From a virus (taxonomy: Duplodnaviria; Heunggongvirae; Uroviricota; Caudoviricetes): a stretch of 6,707 bases of DNA. Positions 1 to 6,707 of the stretch are shown one piece after another (position 1 is the first letter of the stretch; every line of letters begins with the position of its first letter). Position numbers and translations under genes: made by a program. Where the stretch lies: positions 1 to 6,707 of the IMG/VR virus record IMGVR_UViG_2740892118_000001. The stretch is one strand, 5' to 3'. The notes under the pieces are model-generated. The model made no database searches and had not been told where the DNA came from. It saw only the letters and a program-made list of their open reading frames with translations.

Positions 1-72
1 CTGAATAAAAACCGGAGATGATGCCAGTTAGCCATAATCTCTGCATTTTCTTAAACGTTGGTTTGGGAGAAG
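1..72. repeat. Left inverted repeat (IR-L) of the invertible tail-fibre cassette; truncated by the window start
   Basis: Positions 1..72 are the exact reverse complement of 1822..1893, checked base by base. Identity breaks at 73 versus 1821. The leftward extent is unknown because the window begins here. Confidence 0.9.
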
Positions 73-431
73 CGGCAAAACGGGGTGTGGGAACAGGGGA
101 AAATCAGATACCGGACATGGCTTCATTTAGTGGGGTGAGGGATTATTACGGAAAACAACTTTTGCCAGGAGGGTTGATACTTCAGTGGCTGACGATTCCA
201 TCAAGTGCAGCAGCTAAAGCTGTAACACTGAATAATGGTAATTATCAGCTGTCAGGCTATAAATGGCCCCAGTCATTTGGTGTCCTGTTTGCTGTGTTTG
301 CTACAAAAGTTTCTGGCTCGACTAACGAAGCATATGCAATCTCAGTTAATCGTCACTCTACCGATGTAATTGTCACCTGGAATGCCCGTAAGGCTGATGA
401 TGTCCACATTTTAGGAATTGGGAAATTATGA
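18..431 (+). CDS. Tail-fibre tip / receptor-binding module, alternative A (Mu Sv-like position), in the currently upstream-proximal orientation
   Basis: 137-aa ORF starting at ATGATG with GGAG 4 nt upstream. Its first 18 residues ([18 protein letters not shown]) are encoded by the repeat and are identical to the N-terminus of the minus-strand ORF 1421..1876, after which the two proteins diverge. Its stop overlaps the start of the downstream chaperone gene (ATGA at 428..431). The tail-fibre assignment rests on position and the shared N-terminus, not on a recognised domain. Confidence 0.6.
46..71. other. hix/gix/cix-like 26-bp recombination crossover site (left), 12-2-12 with central TT
   Basis: The bottom strand reads TTCTCCCAAACC-AA-CGTTTAAGAAAA, an imperfect dyad with 8 of 12 half-site pairs complementary. 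This matches the recalled Hin/Gin site layout (TTnTCnnAAACC half-sites around a 2-bp core). The inner edge of the site coincides, to within 1 bp, with the point where the two repeat copies diverge. Confidence 0.6.
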
Positions 432-847
432 AAATGAAATGGTCCCCATCTGTTCAGGGATTTTTCTCTGAAAATAACAGCGATATTCCCGATGATGCTT
501 TCGATATTGAAGATGCTCTTTATTATGAACTTATGAATGGTCAGAGTACGGGGAAAATTATTATCAATAACCCGGATAACTACCCTGTACTTACTGAATA
601 TCCAGCGAAGACACAGGAACAGGAAATAGCTGAAGCGGAGGGAATGAAAAGTATACTTATTGAACAGGCCAACGAATACATGAACAGTAAGCAATGGCCT
701 GGTAAAGCCGCTATTGGTCGTCTGAAAGGTGAGGAACTGGCGCAATATAATTTGTGGCTGGATTATCTGGACGCACTGGAACTGGTTGATACCTCCAGTG
801 CGCCAGATATTGAATGGCCTACGCCTCCGGCAGTTCAGGCCAGATGA
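428..847 (+). CDS. Tail-fibre assembly chaperone (Tfa / Mu U / P2 G-like)
   Basis: 139-aa ORF whose C-terminus ([24 protein letters not shown]) matches the conserved C-terminal motif of phage tail-fibre assembly proteins. It is coupled by an ATGA overlap to the preceding tip ORF. Confidence 0.8.
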
Positions 848-1421
848 CATCCGGCGCGGTGCTGGTATCTGTTGCCGTCACCGAGTCAATGTAATCCAGC
901 ACAGCGTTAAGTCGGGTGTTTTCTGTCTGCGTCAGCTTCCGCCCGGCCTGTAATTTCAGCTGAATCAGACTGATGGAAGCCATTGCAGCATCAATCAGCG
1001 ACTGGCGCTGTGCTTCTGCCGCTTCTACTGCGGCGCTATGCTGTGCCTCAGTATCGGTCACCCATTTCTCACCATCCCATTTATCGTATGGCGTTAACGG
1101 TGCGAGAGTGGTTGTATTTTCGGGATAGTCGCCTGGTGCTGTGATTTCTTTGGCATCTCCCGTTTCGGTGTTGTAGACAATTTCACCGCGATGGTCTGGC
1201 ACATATTCCCATGAGTTAAAATCTGCAGAACGGCAGATTGCATAACCAGCTTTATGTGTAACTGGTGCATCTAAACAAGAACATGCCGGGATACCGACGC
1301 CAATGGCAAGATATTCATTTGAAGTAGAAATATATTCCCGAGTTTTACCATCATAGTTATAGACGGTAATATTCCCCGCCTTCGTGGCAATAAGCTCGCT
1401 ATTTAATACGGCGTTATCCAT
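819..1421 (-). CDS. Tail-fibre assembly chaperone, alternative copy (Mu U'-like)
   Basis: 200-aa ORF with C-terminus [26 protein letters not shown], the same Tfa C-terminal motif. Its start overlaps the stop of the upstream tip ORF by 1 nt (TAATG on the minus strand). Its 3' end overlaps the convergent Tfa gene across 819..847. Confidence 0.8.
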   Translation of the reverse strand: MDNAVLNSELIATKAGNITVYNYDGKTREYISTSNEYLAIGVGIPACSCLDAPVTHKAGYAICRSADFNSWEYVPDHRGEIVYNTETGDAKEITAPGDYPENTTTLAPLTPYDKWDGEKWVTDTEAQHSAAVEAAEAQRQSLIDAAMASISLIQLKLQAGRKLTQTENTRLNAVLDYIDSVTATDTSTAPDVIWPELPEA

Positions 1422-1876
1422 TATGCAGCCCTTACGATATAGTTAAATGCAATATTTCGTGGACGGGTTTCGCTCCCGCCATATGATGATGTAAATCCCG
1501 AATATGCCCGGTGTCCCGCATCCGTCGTATTAGCCCAGGAAGGACCGCTAGAAGTATAGATGACCCCATTGTAATCATGGCCGTGTGCCTCAATGCTCCC
1601 GTCCTGAGGAGACAGGAGAGTCCGTCCTGAATCAATTCCTCTTCCATCATCCCACCCACGAATGAATTCGCCGCGTAAATCTGGCAATTTATTTGTCGGA
1701 TAAACTTTTGCCAGTTCCGGATACTCTTCGGCAGAAAAAGCTGCACCGTTGCATTTCAGCCAGCCTGTTGGCGGAGTGGCTGAGGGCCACGGAACAGGCA
1801 CACCAACGGGTAATGCCGAACCTTCTCCCAAACCAACGTTTAAGAAAATGCAGAGATTATGGCTAACTGGCATCAT
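1421..1876 (-). CDS. Tail-fibre tip / receptor-binding module, alternative B (Mu Sv'-like), with a phage tail-collar-type domain
   Basis: 151-aa ORF. It contains the motif block PVPWPSATPPTGWLKCNGAAFSAEEYPELAKVYP...LPDLRGEFIRGWDDGRGIDSGR...NIAFNYIVRA, typical of the C-terminal collar domain of P2 H / Mu S-type fibres. Its N-terminal 18 aa are encoded by IR-R and are identical to those of ORF 18..431. Confidence 0.8.
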   Translation of the reverse strand: MMPVSHNLCIFLNVGLGEGSALPVGVPVPWPSATPPTGWLKCNGAAFSAEEYPELAKVYPTNKLPDLRGEFIRGWDDGRGIDSGRTLLSPQDGSIEAHGHDYNGVIYTSSGPSWANTTDAGHRAYSGFTSSYGGSETRPRNIAFNYIVRAA

Positions 1877-1893
1877 CTCCGGTTTTTATTCAG
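1822..1893. repeat. Right inverted repeat (IR-R) of the invertible tail-fibre cassette
   Basis: Exact reverse complement of 1..72. It ends 11 bp before the invertase start codon at 1904. Confidence 0.9.
1823..1848. other. hix/gix/cix-like 26-bp recombination crossover site (right), 12-2-12 with central AA
   Basis: The top strand reads TTCTCCCAAACC-AA-CGTTTAAGAAAA, the inverted copy of the site at 46..71. It lies 56 bp upstream of the invertase start codon. Confidence 0.6.
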
Positions 1894-1903
1894 GGGGATG
1901 CTC

Positions 1904-2497
1904 ATGCTTATTGGCTATGTACGCGTGTCAACAAATGACCAGAACACGGAATTGCAGCGTAATGCGCTGGAGTGCGCAGGATGTGAGCTGATTTTTGAGG
2001 ACAAAATCAGCGGCACGAAGTCCGACAGGCCGGGGCTGAAAAAACTGCTCAGAACATTATCGGAAGGTGACACTCTGGTTGTCTGGAAGCTGGACAGGCT
2101 GGGGCGTAGTATGCGGCATCTGGTCATTCTGGTTGAGGAACTGCGCGAACGCGGCGTTAATTTTCGCAGCCTGACGGATGCTATTGATACCAGCACGCCG
2201 ATGGGGCGTTTTTTCTTTCATGTGATGGGTGCCCTGGCTGAAATGGAGCGAGAACTCATTGTCGAGCGGACACGCGCCGGACTGGAAGCGGCCAGAGCCA
2301 AAGGTCGTATTGGTGGCAGACGACCGAAACTCACCGCGAGTGAGTGGGAGCAGGCCGGGCGTTTGCTGGCTGCAGGGGAGTCACGTCAACGCGTGGCACT
2401 GATTTTTGATATTGGTCTGTCCACGCTCTATAAAAAATTTCCCTCATCAGCGACAAAGAATAAATTGTGTCATCCCTTAGCCAACCGGGACAAATAG
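1904..2497 (+). CDS. Serine DNA invertase, Gin/Pin/Hin/Cin family
   Basis: The protein begins MLIGYVRVSTNDQNTELQRNAL, which carries the catalytic-serine motif of the resolvase/invertase family. It continues with GDTLVVWKLDRLGRS and MGRFFFHVMGALAEMEREL, and ends with a C-terminal helix-turn-helix region (RQRVALIFDIGLSTLYKK). A GGGGGA Shine-Dalgarno lies 5 nt upstream. I prefer the ATG at 1904 to the track start at 1859 because the recalled Gin N-terminus is MLIGYVRVS and because 1859..1893 lies inside the repeat. Confidence 0.93.
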   Translation: MLIGYVRVSTNDQNTELQRNALECAGCELIFEDKISGTKSDRPGLKKLLRTLSEGDTLVVWKLDRLGRSMRHLVILVEELRERGVNFRSLTDAIDTSTPMGRFFFHVMGALAEMERELIVERTRAGLEAARAKGRIGGRRPKLTASEWEQAGRLLAAGESRQRVALIFDIGLSTLYKKFPSSATKNKLCHPLANRDK

Positions 2498-2556
2498 CCT
2501 GACATCTCCGGCACAACTGAAAATATCACTCACCCATTAACCACGGAGTTAAACGG

Positions 2557-3747
2557 ATGAGTGACTATCATCACGGCGTGCAGGTGCTGGAGATTAACGA
2601 CGGCACCCGCGTCATTTCCACCGTATCCACGGCCATTGTCGGCATGGTCTGCACGGCCAGCGATGCAGATGCGGAAACCTTCCCCCTCAATAAACCGGTG
2701 CTGATTACCAATGTGCAGAGCGCAATTGCAAAGGCCGGTAAAAAAGGCACGCTGGCGGCGTCGTTACAGGCCATCGCTGACCAGTCAAAACCGGTCACCG
2801 TTGTTGTGCGCGTGGAAGACGGCACCGGCGACGACGAAGAAACGAAACTTGCGCAGACCGTTTCCAATATCATCGGCACCACCGACGAAAACGGTCAGTA
2901 CACCGGACTGAAAGCCCTGCTGGCGGCGGAGTCGGTAACCGGTGTTAAACCGCGTATTCTCGGCGTGCCGGGACTGGATACCAAAGAGGTGGCTGTTGCA
3001 CTGGCATCAGTCTGTCAGAAGCTGCGCGCTTTCGGGTATATCAGCGCATGGGGCTGTAAAACCATTTCCGAGGTGAAAGCCTACCGCCAGAATTTCAGCC
3101 AGCGTGAGCTGATGGTCATCTGGCCGGATTTCCTCGCATGGGATACGGTCACCAGTACCACCGCCACCGCGTATGCCACCGCCCGTGCACTGGGGCTGCG
3201 TGCCAAAATCGACCAGGAGCAGGGCTGGCATAAAACGCTGTCCAATGTCGGGGTGAACGGTGTTACCGGCATCAGCGCGTCCGTATTCTGGGATTTGCAG
3301 GAGTCCGGCACCGATGCTGACCTGCTTAACGAGTCAGGCGTCACAACGCTGATTCGCCGTGACGGTTTCCGCTTCTGGGGTAACCGTACCTGCTCTGATG
3401 ACCCGCTGTTCCTCTTTGAAAACTACACCCGCACCGCGCAGGTGCTGGCCGACACGATGGCTGAGGCGCACATGTGGGCGGTGGACAAGCCCATCACCGC
3501 AACGCTGATTCGCGACATCGTTGACGGCATCAATGCCAAATTCCGTGAGCTGAAAACAAACGGCTATATCGTGGATGCGACCTGCTGGTTCAGCGAAGAA
3601 TCCAACGATGCGGAAACCCTTAAGGCCGGAAAACTGTATATCGACTACGACTATACCCCGGTGCCTCCTCTTGAAAACCTGACCCTGCGCCAGCGTATTA
3701 CCGATAAATACCTGGCAAATCTGGTCACCTCGGTTAACAGCAATTAA
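2557..3747 (+). CDS. FI: Contractile tail sheath protein (P2 gpFI-like)
   Basis: 396-aa ORF beginning MSDYHHGVQVLEINDGTRVISTVST, with GGAG 9 nt upstream. Its size, sequence and position immediately before a tube gene match P2 FI. Confidence 0.93.
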   Translation: MSDYHHGVQVLEINDGTRVISTVSTAIVGMVCTASDADAETFPLNKPVLITNVQSAIAKAGKKGTLAASLQAIADQSKPVTVVVRVEDGTGDDEETKLAQTVSNIIGTTDENGQYTGLKALLAAESVTGVKPRILGVPGLDTKEVAVALASVCQKLRAFGYISAWGCKTISEVKAYRQNFSQRELMVIWPDFLAWDTVTSTTATAYATARALGLRAKIDQEQGWHKTLSNVGVNGVTGISASVFWDLQESGTDADLLNESGVTTLIRRDGFRFWGNRTCSDDPLFLFENYTRTAQVLADTMAEAHMWAVDKPITATLIRDIVDGINAKFRELKTNGYIVDATCWFSEESNDAETLKAGKLYIDYDYTPVPPLENLTLRQRITDKYLANLVTSVNSN

Positions 3748-3759
3748 GGAGCCTGACCG

Positions 3760-4278
3760 ATGGCAATGCCGCGCAAACTCAAGTTAATGAACGTCTTTCT
3801 GAACGGCTACAGCTATCAGGGCGTCGCGAAGTCCGTCACGCTACCAAAACTGACCCGTAAGCTCGAAAACTATCGCGGTGCGGGGATGAACGGCAGCGCA
3901 CCGGTAGACCTCGGCCTTGATGACGATGCGCTGTCAATGGAGTGGTCGCTCGGTGGCTTCCCGGATTCGGTTATCTGGGAGCTTTACGCCGCAACCGGTG
4001 TGGATGCCGTGCCGATTCGTTTTGCAGGCTCTTACCAGCGCGACGATACCGGCGAAACGGTGGCCGTCGAAGTGGTCATGCGTGGACGTCAGAAAGAAAT
4101 CGACACCGGCGAGGGTAAACAGGGAGAAGACACCGAGTCGAAAATCTCCGTGGTCTGCACCTATTTCCGGCTGACGATGGACGGTAAGGAGCTGGTCGAA
4201 ATCGACACCATCAACATGATTGAGAAGGTGAACGGCGCCGACCGGCTGGAGCAACACCGCCGAAATATCGGCCTGTGA
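3760..4278 (+). CDS. FII: Tail tube protein (P2 gpFII-like)
   Basis: 172-aa ORF beginning MAMPRKLKLMNVFLNGYSYQGVAKSVTLPKL, with AGGAG 9 nt upstream. It starts 12 nt after the FI stop. Confidence 0.93.
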   Translation: MAMPRKLKLMNVFLNGYSYQGVAKSVTLPKLTRKLENYRGAGMNGSAPVDLGLDDDALSMEWSLGGFPDSVIWELYAATGVDAVPIRFAGSYQRDDTGETVAVEVVMRGRQKEIDTGEGKQGEDTESKISVVCTYFRLTMDGKELVEIDTINMIEKVNGADRLEQHRRNIGL

Positions 4279-4285
4279 TTTTCAT

Positions 4286-4306
4286 CCGGTCAGCCAGGCT
4301 GACCGG
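4286..4306. other. Perfect 21-bp palindrome between FII and E; candidate attenuator hairpin or protein-binding site
   Basis: CCGGTCAGCC-A-GGCTGACCGG has 10-bp arms that are exactly complementary. It starts 8 nt after the FII stop. No T-tract follows on either strand, so it is not a canonical intrinsic terminator. Confidence 0.4.
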
Positions 4307-4334
4307 TTAACCCTGATTCAGAAGTGAGAAAACC

Positions 4335-4610
4335 ATGAACAAAGAAAATGTGATTACCCTGGACAATCCGGTCAAACGTGGTGAGCAGGTCATCGAACAG
4401 GTCACGCTGATGAAACCCAGTGCGGGGACGCTGCGCGGTGTCAGTCTGGCTGCGGTCGCGAACTCCGAAGTCGATGCACTGATTAAGGTGCTGCCGCGCA
4501 TGACTGCACCGATGCTGACCGAGCAGGAAGTCGCCGCACTGGAACTGCCTGACCTTGTGGCGCTGGCCGGTAAGGTGGTCGGTTTTTTGTCGCCGAACTC
4601 GGTACAGTAA
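4335..4610 (+). CDS. E: Tail assembly chaperone (P2 gpE-like), unshifted product
   Basis: 91-aa ORF (MNKENVITLDNPVKRGEQVIEQVTL...) placed between the tube and tape-measure genes. It ends shortly after a TTTTTTG slippery run. Confidence 0.9.
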   Translation: MNKENVITLDNPVKRGEQVIEQVTLMKPSAGTLRGVSLAAVANSEVDALIKVLPRMTAPMLTEQEVAALELPDLVALAGKVVGFLSPNSVQ

Positions 4611-4762
4611 CGTTTCCGAAAAATCTCTCGGTCGATGACCTGATGGCGGATGTGGCAGTGATATTTCACTGGCCGCCATCAGAACTGTATCCCATGAGCC
4701 TGACCGAACTCATCACATGGCGCGAAAAGGCGCTCCGGCGAAGCGGAAACACGAATGAGTAA
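4335..4762 (+). CDS. E': gpE+E' fusion made by a -1 programmed ribosomal frameshift
   Basis: After a -1 slip at T_TTT_TTG (4583..4589) the shifted frame stays open for 58 codons (VAELGTVTFPKNLSVDDLMADVAVIFHWPPSELYPMSLTELITWREKALRRSGNTNE) and stops at TAA 4760..4762, 8 nt inside the T gene. This is the conserved arrangement of tail chaperone pairs (P2 E/E', lambda G/GT). Confidence 0.75.
4583..4589 (+). other. Slippery heptamer T_TTT_TTG for the E/E' -1 frameshift
   Basis: In the E frame it reads GGT TTT TTG. The heptamer lies 19 nt upstream of the E stop codon. Confidence 0.7.
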
Positions 4763-6707
4763 CAATGTAAAATTACAGGTATTGCTCAGGGCTGTTGACC
4801 AGGCATCCCGCCCGTTTAAATCCATCCGTACAGCGAGTAAGTCGCTGTCGGGGGATATCCGGGAAACACAAAAATCACTGCGCGAGCTGAACGGTCAAGC
4901 ATCCCGTATTGAGGGATTCCGCAAGACCAGTGCACAGCTTGCCGTGACTGGTCATGCACTTGAAAAGGCACGGCAGGAAGCCGAAGCCCTTGCCACACAG
5001 TTTAAAAACACCGAACGTCCGACCCGTGCTCAGGCGAAAGTGCTGGAATCCGCAAAGCGTGCGGCGGAGGACTTACAGGCGAAATATAACCGCCTGACAG
5101 ATTCCGTTAAACGCCAGCAGCGGGAACTGGCCGCTGTGGGAATTAATACCCGCAATCTTGCACATGATGAGCAGGGACTGAAAAACCGTATCAGTGAAAC
5201 CACCGCACAGCTTAACCGTCAGCGTGATGCGCTGGCGCGTGTCAGTGCGCAACAGGCAAAACTTAACGCAGTAAAACAGCGTTATCAGGCCGGAAAGGAA
5301 CTGGCCGGAAATATGGCCTCGGTGGGCGCTGCCGGTGTGGGGATTGCGGCGGCGGGAACGATGGCCGGAGTTAAGCTGCTGATGCCCGGTTATGAGTTTG
5401 CGCAGAAAAACTCAGAATTACAGGCTGTGCTCGGTGTGGCAAAAGACTCCGCCGAAATGGCTGCACTACGCAAGCAGGCGCGTCAGCTCGGCGACAACAC
5501 CGCCGCCTCGGCGGATGATGCGGCCGGTGCGCAGATTATCATTGCGAAAGCGGGTGGAGATGTTGATGCCATTCAGGCGGCAACGCCGGTCACACTGAAC
5601 ATGGCGCTGGCGAACCGCCGCACGATGGAAGAAAACGCCGCCCTGCTGATGGGGATGAAATCCGCCTTTCAGCTTTCAAACGATAAGGTCGCTCATATCG
5701 GGGATGTTCTCTCCATGACGATGAACAAAACCGCCGCCGATTTTGACGGCATGAGCGATGCGCTGACCTATGCCGCACCTGTGGCAAAAAATGCCGGTGT
5801 CAGCATTGAAGAAACCGCCGCAATGGTCGGGGCGCTGCATGATGCAAAAATTACCGGTTCAATGGCGGGGACGGGAAGCCGTGCCGTGTTAAGTCGCCTG
5901 CAGGCACCGACGGGAAAAGCATGGGATGCACTGAAAGAGCTTGGTGTGAAAACCTCAGACAGCAAGGGAAACACCCGACCAGTATTTACCATTCTGAAAG
6001 AAATGCAGGCCAGTTTTGAGAAAAACCGGCTCGGTACTGCCCAGCAGGCCGAATACATGAAAACCATTTTCGGGGAGGAGGCAAGCTCAGCCGCCGCCGT
6101 GCTGATGACTGCCGCGTCAACCGGAAAGCTGGACAAACTGACCGCTGCGTTTAAAGCCTCAGACGGGAAGACCGCAGAGCTGGTAAATATCATGCAGGAC
6201 AACCTCGGCGGTGACTTTAAGGAGTTTCAGTCCGCTTATGAGGCGGTGGGGACAGACCTGTTTGACCAGCAGGAAGGCGCACTGCGTAAGCTCACTCAGA
6301 CGGCCACAAAGTATGTGTTAAAACTCGACGGCTGGATCCAGAAAAACAAATCACTGGCGTCAACCATCGGCCTCATTGTCGGTGGTGCACTGGCGCTGAC
6401 TGCTGTCATCGGTGCCATTGGCCTCGTAGCCTGGCCGGTTATCACTGGCATCAATGCCATCATCGCGGCAGCAGGCGCAATGGGGGCAATCTTCACGACG
6501 GTTGGCAGTGCTGTTATGACGGCCATCGGGGCGATTAGCTGGCCGGTTGTGGCCGTGGTGGCCGCCATTGTCGCCGGGGCGTTGCTTATCCGTAAATACT
6601 GGGAGCCTGTCAGCGCATTCTTTGGCGGTGTGGTGGAAGGGCTGAAAGCGGCATTTGCGCCGGTGGGGGAACTGTTCACGCCACTTAAGCCGGTGTTTGA
6701 CTGGCTG
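4755..6707 (+). CDS. T: Tail tape measure protein (P2 gpT-like), 5' partial; the ORF runs off the window end
   Basis: The frame from ATG 4755 is open for 651 codons to the last base of the window. The N-terminal part is rich in heptad-like A/Q/R/L/K/E stretches (MSNNVKLQVLLRAVDQASRPFKSIRTASKSL...). A Gly/Ala/Ile-rich hydrophobic block follows near 6350..6600. It sits immediately downstream of E/E'. The ORF track omits it only because there is no stop within the window. Confidence 0.93.
   Translation, partial: MSNNVKLQVLLRAVDQASRPFKSIRTASKSLSGDIRETQKSLRELNGQASRIEGFRKTSAQLAVTGHALEKARQEAEALATQFKNTERPTRAQAKVLESAKRAAEDLQAKYNRLTDSVKRQQRELAAVGINTRNLAHDEQGLKNRISETTAQLNRQRDALARVSAQQAKLNAVKQRYQAGKELAGNMASVGAAGVGIAAAGTMAGVKLLMPGYEFAQKNSELQAVLGVAKDSAEMAALRKQARQLGDNTAASADDAAGAQIIIAKAGGDVDAIQAATPVTLNMALANRRTMEENAALLMGMKSAFQLSNDKVAHIGDVLSMTMNKTAADFDGMSDALTYAAPVAKNAGVSIEETAAMVGALHDAKITGSMAGTGSRAVLSRLQAPTGKAWDALKELGVKTSDSKGNTRPVFTILKEMQASFEKNRLGTAQQAEYMKTIFGEEASSAAAVLMTAASTGKLDKLTAAFKASDGKTAELVNIMQDNLGGDFKEFQSAYEAVGTDLFDQQEGALRKLTQTATKYVLKLDGWIQKNKSLASTIGLIVGGALALTAVIGAIGLVAWPVITGINAIIAAAGAMGAIFTTVGSAVMTAIGAISWPVVAVVAAIVAGALLIRKYWEPVSAFFGGVVEGLKAAFAPVGELFTPLKPVFDWL

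Follow-up and report, generated by a model that had tools for sequence, protein, structure and literature searches.

A probable Pin/Gin-type switch of tail fibre tips in a P2-like prophage of Escherichia coli, with a likely hybrid junction at its left end

Two short tail fibre genes lie face to face between the arms of a long, perfect inverted repeat, with a DNA invertase gene beside them. Do they form a host-range switch of the phage, and is the repeat part of its machinery? The question was raised by IMG/VR record IMGVR_UViG_2740892118_000001, a tailed virus of the Caudoviricetes, of which positions 1 to 6,707 were analyzed (6,707 nucleotides (nt) on one strand, referred to as the window throughout). 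An earlier note, made from the letters of the window, had described an invertible tail fibre switch in a P2-type tail module. The locus is considered, with a probability of about 0.88, to be a known Pin/Gin-type fibre-tip inversion switch in a P2-like (Peduovirus) Escherichia coli prophage. The switch is real but ordinary, as its class has been described already and RefSeq contains a nearly base-for-base copy of the locus. For the repeat the answer is different: it is concluded that 57 of its 72 bases are the effect of a hybrid junction, and that the perfect 72-nt repeat is neither native nor part of the machinery.

The invertible segment occupies positions 58-1836, the 1,779 base pairs (bp) that separate the central dinucleotides of two crossover sites. 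It holds two convergent cassettes, each consisting of a fibre tip and a tail fibre assembly (Tfa) chaperone. The variable C-terminal tip A is encoded at 60-431 on the + strand (GLGE + 119 amino acids (aa)) and is followed by its chaperone TfaA at 428-847 (+; 139 aa, Caudo_TAP, 50% identical to e14 TfaP), the start of which overlaps the tip A stop (ATGA). The variable C-terminal tip B is encoded at 1421-1834 on the - strand (GLGE + 133 aa, 63% identical to e14 StfE) and its chaperone TfaB at 819-1421 (-; 200 aa, Caudo_TAP, 89.5% identical to e14 TfaE). The two chaperones are alike only over their C-terminal 68 residues, with 34% identity. A Collar domain (PF07484) was located in the right tip, B, and no Pfam domain match was obtained for tip A. 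Tip B is silent in the window's orientation. The serine DNA invertase gene lies beyond the segment at 1904-2497 (+). The earlier note had assigned a Collar-type domain to the right tip only, a Tfa chaperone of its own to each tip, and a Gin-family invertase to the position just outside the right repeat; all three assignments were borne out.

The native form of the locus was obtained from the closed chromosome of E. coli M172-1 (NZ_CP058714.1), which is identical to window positions 58-6707 except at positions 3543 and 6296. Over window positions 1-57 the chromosome is wholly different, and has in their place the 3'-terminal stretch of the constant region of a gpH-like fibre gene, which bears PF12571 as its N-terminal domain. 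In M172-1 a 399-aa coding sequence, H::tipA, runs uninterrupted through the repeat core into tip A; the constant part of the fibre accounts for 280 aa and ends in ...LLAYLGLGE. The window as given contains no such in-frame fusion. The constant part is missing, and a stop codon is present within bases 1-21 in all three forward frames, so no upstream fibre open reading frame (ORF) could read into tip A.

The crossover sites are of the 26-bp Pin type, with 12-bp half-sites around a 2-bp core, and are in inverted orientation. The right pix-type site at 1823-1848 (+) reads TTCTCCCAAACC AA CGTTTAAGAAAA and has 1 mismatch to the e14 site adjoining pinE. The left pix-type site in its window form, at 46-71 on the - strand, has the same sequence (TTCTCCCAAACC AA CGTTTAAGAAAA) with its central dinucleotide at 58-59. 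The native left site in M172-1 is TTCTCGCATACC TT GGTTTGGGAGAA, which encodes LLAYLGLGE, and its outer half-site TTCTCGCATACC is within the fibre coding sequence. Scans of the window that tolerated up to 3 mismatches, or used a relaxed core pattern, revealed no further crossover site, giving a total of two. A shufflon-like multiple-inversion system (three or more sites, as in Min of p15B and in a three-repeat P2-like locus of enteropathogenic E. coli (EPEC)) was considered and rejected, only two sites being present in the window.

A repeat search of the window returned an inverted repeat of 72 nt, 100% complementary, with arms at 1-72 and 1822-1893. The native repeat in M172-1 is 27 nt long and 81% complementary, with a 15-nt perfect core TTGGTTTGGGAGAAG, and repeats of 21-31 nt were found in all other closed records examined (P2-like phages KC618326 and OQ383618, E. 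coli Q65, and e14 of K-12). The perfect repeats described in the earlier note are therefore a feature of the window and not of the native locus. That note had also held that repeats differing in the native genome would speak against its reading and point to an assembly artefact. They do differ, and it is the repeat, not the switch, that is refuted. Among the relatives, the crossover sites of P2-like phage KC618326.1 (3058-3088 and 4922-4952) form a 31-nt perfect repeat, in which the invertase-adjacent site bears the outer half-site of the constant region; native repeat length thus varies among relatives (21-31 nt).

When segment 58-1836 was inverted in silico behind the M172-1 constant region, an in-frame 413-aa fusion, H::tipB, was obtained. 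A constant 5' fibre part is thus fused in frame to alternative 3' parts, once in M172-1 and once after the flip. With the flipped state as query, matches at 95% coverage and ∼98% identity came from five distinct closed genome sequences, including those of Q65, CB7453 and 5735. These five sequences correspond to six records from six strains; CB7453 is present under a second accession too, and WP8-S18-CRE-02 and GSH8M-2 have the same length and coordinates. The unflipped query, in the state of the window, was matched by M172-1, E6474 and LR778147 at a coverage of at least 95%. At a coverage of at least 80%, 15 records were found with the flipped query and 8 with the unflipped one.

Inversion was also observed between the sister isolates GPEC1209 and GPEC1210. 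Their 9,470-nt loci, which belong to a related P2-like prophage, are identical except for the exact inversion of 1,840-1,870 nt with the 15-nt core at its borders. In KC618326 and OQ383618, both of them complete P2-like phages, H is joined to a tip-B-like cassette, and the invertase has a tip-A-like cassette as its neighbour. The segment therefore occurs in both orientations, in closed genomes, in the GPEC pair and in the window's own two junctions. Together with the in-frame 413-aa fusion, this upheld the proposal of the earlier note that inversion swaps the tip and chaperone pairs behind the constant fibre region. The segments of e14 and of P2-like prophages have been reported to flip continuously in culture (PMC4272514).

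The invertase is a protein of 197 aa with its true start at 1904 (MLIGYVRVST) and not at the mechanical ORF start, 1859. It is built like a small serine recombinase (∼190 aa): the catalytic domain, which bears the catalytic Ser9 in YVRVST, is N-terminal, and a helix-turn-helix is C-terminal (PF00239 and PF02796; resolvase/HTH_7). Identity is 159/184 residues to e14 PinE (86%) and 148/193 residues to Mu Gin (77%), and residues 1-182 align with the Gin structure 3UJ3 (E = 1.6e-94). The 5' 200 nt of the gene are well conserved with gin and pinE. In an enhancer-footprint test, synonymous-site conservation in this 5' part was not clearly above that of the rest of the gene. Within 2440-2556, the stretch that encodes the last ∼13 codons (197 aa, compared with 184 in PinE and 193 in Gin) overlaps the counterpart of the P2 pF activator (Ogr) binding site. 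Similarity to P2 starts at 2477, inside the annotated pF site; the upstream half of that site has therefore been replaced by invertase coding sequence.

As listed, the tip ORFs run from 18 to 431 (+, 137 aa) and from 1421 to 1876 (-, 151 aa). Both have the same 18-aa N-terminus, and the remainder is unrelated (BLASTP E = 2.8). The earlier note had described just this identity followed by divergence. It holds for the ORFs of the window, but only GLGE is true shared coding. Apart from GLGE, which belongs to the fibre frame, the 18 common residues arise artefactually, through translation of the invertase-side spacer, and the tips are C-terminal modules fused to the 280-aa constant part rather than stand-alone ORFs. 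It is scarcely credible that they exist as small proteins in their own right, 137 and 151 aa long and starting MMPVSH..., for which the repeat provides a common N-terminal module. Both short ORFs do open with ATG and are reported by gene callers, but they match solely the C-terminal ends of long fibre families (phrog_2557, 413-534 of 534, for tip A; phrog_523, 479-638 of 673), and their first 14 codons derive from the spacer preceding the invertase gene. Moreover, the expressed copy in closed genomes is a fusion of 399 to 445 aa, and the e14 counterpart StfE, with a similarly odd N-terminus (MPFACYFFIFINVGLGE...), is annotated as a pseudogene. An NCBIfam search of the fibre parts returned no specific family.

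The remaining question concerns bases 1-57. Read in reverse complement, this non-native left flank matches the invertase-side flank at 1837-1893 exactly, and it corresponds to the junction of the opposite orientation, in which tip A is next to the invertase; window positions 1-130 are the reverse complement of the right junction in closed genome Q65, where tip A adjoins the invertase. The right junction of the window has tip B next to the invertase. The junctions of both orientations are therefore joined in one sequence, and one single copy of the locus cannot hold both invertase-flank junctions. The left repeat arm begins at window base 1, so that its outer limit is set by the window edge. 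The cause would most likely be short-read assembly of a culture or sample holding both orientations.

The window could instead be a faithful single molecule with a true second invertase-side flank to the left of the segment, the fibre being 'off' and both tips uncoupled from the constant region. Such a molecule would have arisen through Pin-mediated recombination between the sites of two pin-bearing elements, or through a local inverted duplication. Several independent draft contigs likewise carry the invertase flank at both ends, such loci are commonly present more than once per E. coli genome (median 2 places, up to 13), and an e14-like element in which tip A adjoins its own invertase exists (L002, described below). 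The double flank was, however, found in 0 of 5,426 complete E. coli genomes when these were searched with the window and with a similar draft contig as queries; complete genomes matched from about position 55 onward or as far as the distal junction, never both. The public draft and metagenome contigs with the same left junction all start exactly at the outer end of the repeat, and the length of the repeat in them is 55 nt (six contigs) or 98, 111 and 127 nt (three others). The repeat length therefore tracks the point at which the contig was cut and not the DNA. An e14-like element as the source of the left flank was rejected, as the flank of L002 differs at 2 of the first 17 bases and the window's own right flank is identical. 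A faithful single molecule, whether formed by Pin-type recombination between two pin-bearing prophages or by inverted duplication, is thus regarded as very unlikely. If true, the double flank would be a third, 'off' state of the switch and the footprint of an invertase-driven rearrangement between prophages.

Other metagenome contigs of the prophage break at window position 1822 or within ∼40 nt of it. An exact-match scan with an 81-mer around variant position 6296 identified 18 metagenome contigs, none of them identical to the window, and exact-match scans with the left junction (window 1-99) gave no match in viral, metagenome or genome contigs.

For a working inversion switch at this locus the following mechanism is proposed. 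The constant part of a gpH-like fibre gene would lie just upstream of the window, with the 26-bp crossover site inside its coding sequence. The invertase (1904-2497) would pair that site with the inverted site at 1823-1848, cut both at their central dinucleotides and flip the 1.78-kb segment, the strands rotating while Fis occupies an enhancer towards the 5' end of the invertase gene. H::tipA (399 aa) and TfaA would then be made in one orientation, H::tipB (413 aa, with the Collar domain) and TfaB in the other. Each fibre presumably has a receptor of its own, and progeny virions would differ in host range.

Several points weigh against this account. At the exact locus of the window, inversion is deduced from relatives and from the hybrid junction. 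The enhancer within the invertase gene is putative, and both dependence on Fis and catalysis by this particular invertase are presumed from kinship with the Gin/Hin/Pin family. The different host ranges of the two fibres are suggested by analogy with Mu and P1. The assembly explanation of bases 1-57 is indirect, and graph logic alone does not explain why the invertase flank, and not the constant region, appears at both ends instead of a break at the crossover.

The switch might also serve mainly the host in the lysogen, with one orientation giving rise to a protein, derived from the fibre, that keeps other phages from adsorbing, as with PinQ and e14 StfE2. Adsorption blocking has been reported for the homologous e14 segment (PMC12529663); e14 StfE shares 63% identity with tip B, and e14 TfaE 89.5% with TfaB. 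Here, however, the structural module that houses the cassette is 97% identical to P2, and in M172-1, a closed relative, the cassette is surrounded by a complete set of P2-type genes for lysis, baseplate and tail. Switching of virion host range therefore accounts for the cassette without a host-defence role. P2 late genes are moreover not expected to be expressed in the lysogen, and a switch kept mainly for host defence is considered highly improbable.

Downstream of the invertase the window contains tail genes on the + strand in P2-like order, namely FI, FII, E/E' with its slippery site and T, downstream of the fibre genes. Tail sheath FI (2557-3747), tail tube FII (3760-4278) and tail assembly chaperone E (4335-4610) were identified by Pfam matches and nucleotide identity to P2. 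The 5' part of tape measure T (4755-6707) was identified by nucleotide identity to P2 and runs past the window end. The stretch at 4560-4640, around the annotated P2 -1 frameshift site for E+E' and including the T-run GGTTTTTTG, is conserved, with two substitutions in 80 bases. A sigma-70 promoter scan of the window gave 3 sites, compared with a mean of 4.0 in shuffled sequence, i.e. no excess. A terminator scan gave 8 sites, compared with a mean of 2.8, the sole one of note being at 1865-1884. This weak terminator-like hairpin with a T-run (1865-1884 on the + strand, mirrored at 10-29 on the - strand) separates the invertible segment from the invertase gene, and could end the fibre operon in the manner of the V-operon terminator in P2.

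Related modules were also observed in other settings. In L002 (ENA ERZ27280528 k141_470721, 6938-10491) the tip A cassette is present with 98.8% identity, adjoining a 185-aa Pin-like invertase. The L002 element is small, with integrase, DinI and DUF4145 genes; it has dnaB and alr in its vicinity and shows no P2 genes. Cassettes therefore move between unrelated elements. A P2-type fibre and invertase module is present in one orientation at 17946-21456 of NZ_CP134387.1, an 88,440-bp plasmid record of E. coli TUM11352, and a related module in the TUM11352 chromosome has the opposite orientation. The plasmid record may be a phage-plasmid or a misassigned replicon.

The locus adds little new biology, being a further example of a phage host-range switch known from textbooks. 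It has some bearing on the reading of short-read assemblies, in which an active invertible segment can seem to be flanked by a long 'perfect' inverted repeat that is partly the alternative junction. Such hybrid junctions create spurious shared N-termini and mask the true gene fusion. They can also be put to use, as an inexpensive sign that the sample sequenced contained the segment in both orientations.

Among known systems, phage P2 (NC_001895) supplies the framework. Window positions 2477-6707 (FI, FII, E/E' and T) are 97.3% identical to it at the nucleotide level, beginning inside the annotated pF activator site, which confirmed the P2-type tail module. P2 differs in having a fixed 669-aa H followed by G and fun(Z) at the place of the inversion cassette; the 3' part of H, G and fun(Z) have been replaced here. 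The earlier note had called the locus a switchable variant of the P2 module. Switchable it is, but not new: such segments have been published (PMC4272514), invertases with inverted neighbours have been noted at the same P2 hotspot in a survey preprint (bioRxiv 10.1101/2024.10.15.618418), and an invertase is annotated in phage pro483. For the invertible segments of P2-like prophages of EPEC E2348/69, inversion has been shown by sequencing and polymerase chain reaction (Goldberg et al. 2014, PMC4272514). EPEC E2348/69, pro483 and other Peduovirus records share phage type and genome position with the present locus, and pro483 is 92.9% identical over 71% of window positions 1-2600. They differ in carrying another combination of cassettes, and one EPEC locus has three repeats and shows shufflon-like behaviour, compared with the two sites here.

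The Mu G segment with Gin has the same plan, in that a 26-bp site divides the fibre gene into a constant and a variable portion, two tip and chaperone cassettes are present and the invertase lies just outside. The G segment is 3 kb long, compared with 1.8 kb here. A search of the four cassette proteins against Mu S, S', U and U' and the e14 homologues, as proposed in the earlier note, gave no similarity of tips or chaperones to the Mu proteins at E < 1e-3; only e14 proteins matched. The P segment of e14, a cryptic prophage of E. coli K-12, with its invertase PinE is the closest known relative of the cassette. The order is the same (constant part, tip, Tfa, convergent Tfa', tip', invertase), the segment size is close (1,797 compared with 1,749 nt here between the repeat arms), and the invertase-adjacent site differs by the single mismatch given above. 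The invertase here has a 13-aa C-terminal extension, absent from PinE, over the P2 pF promoter region. The constant region here is gpH-like (PF12571), and tip A is without an e14 counterpart. e14 itself is a lambdoid remnant, whereas the cassette here resides in a myovirus prophage of P2 type, which M172-1, a closed relative, carries in intact form.

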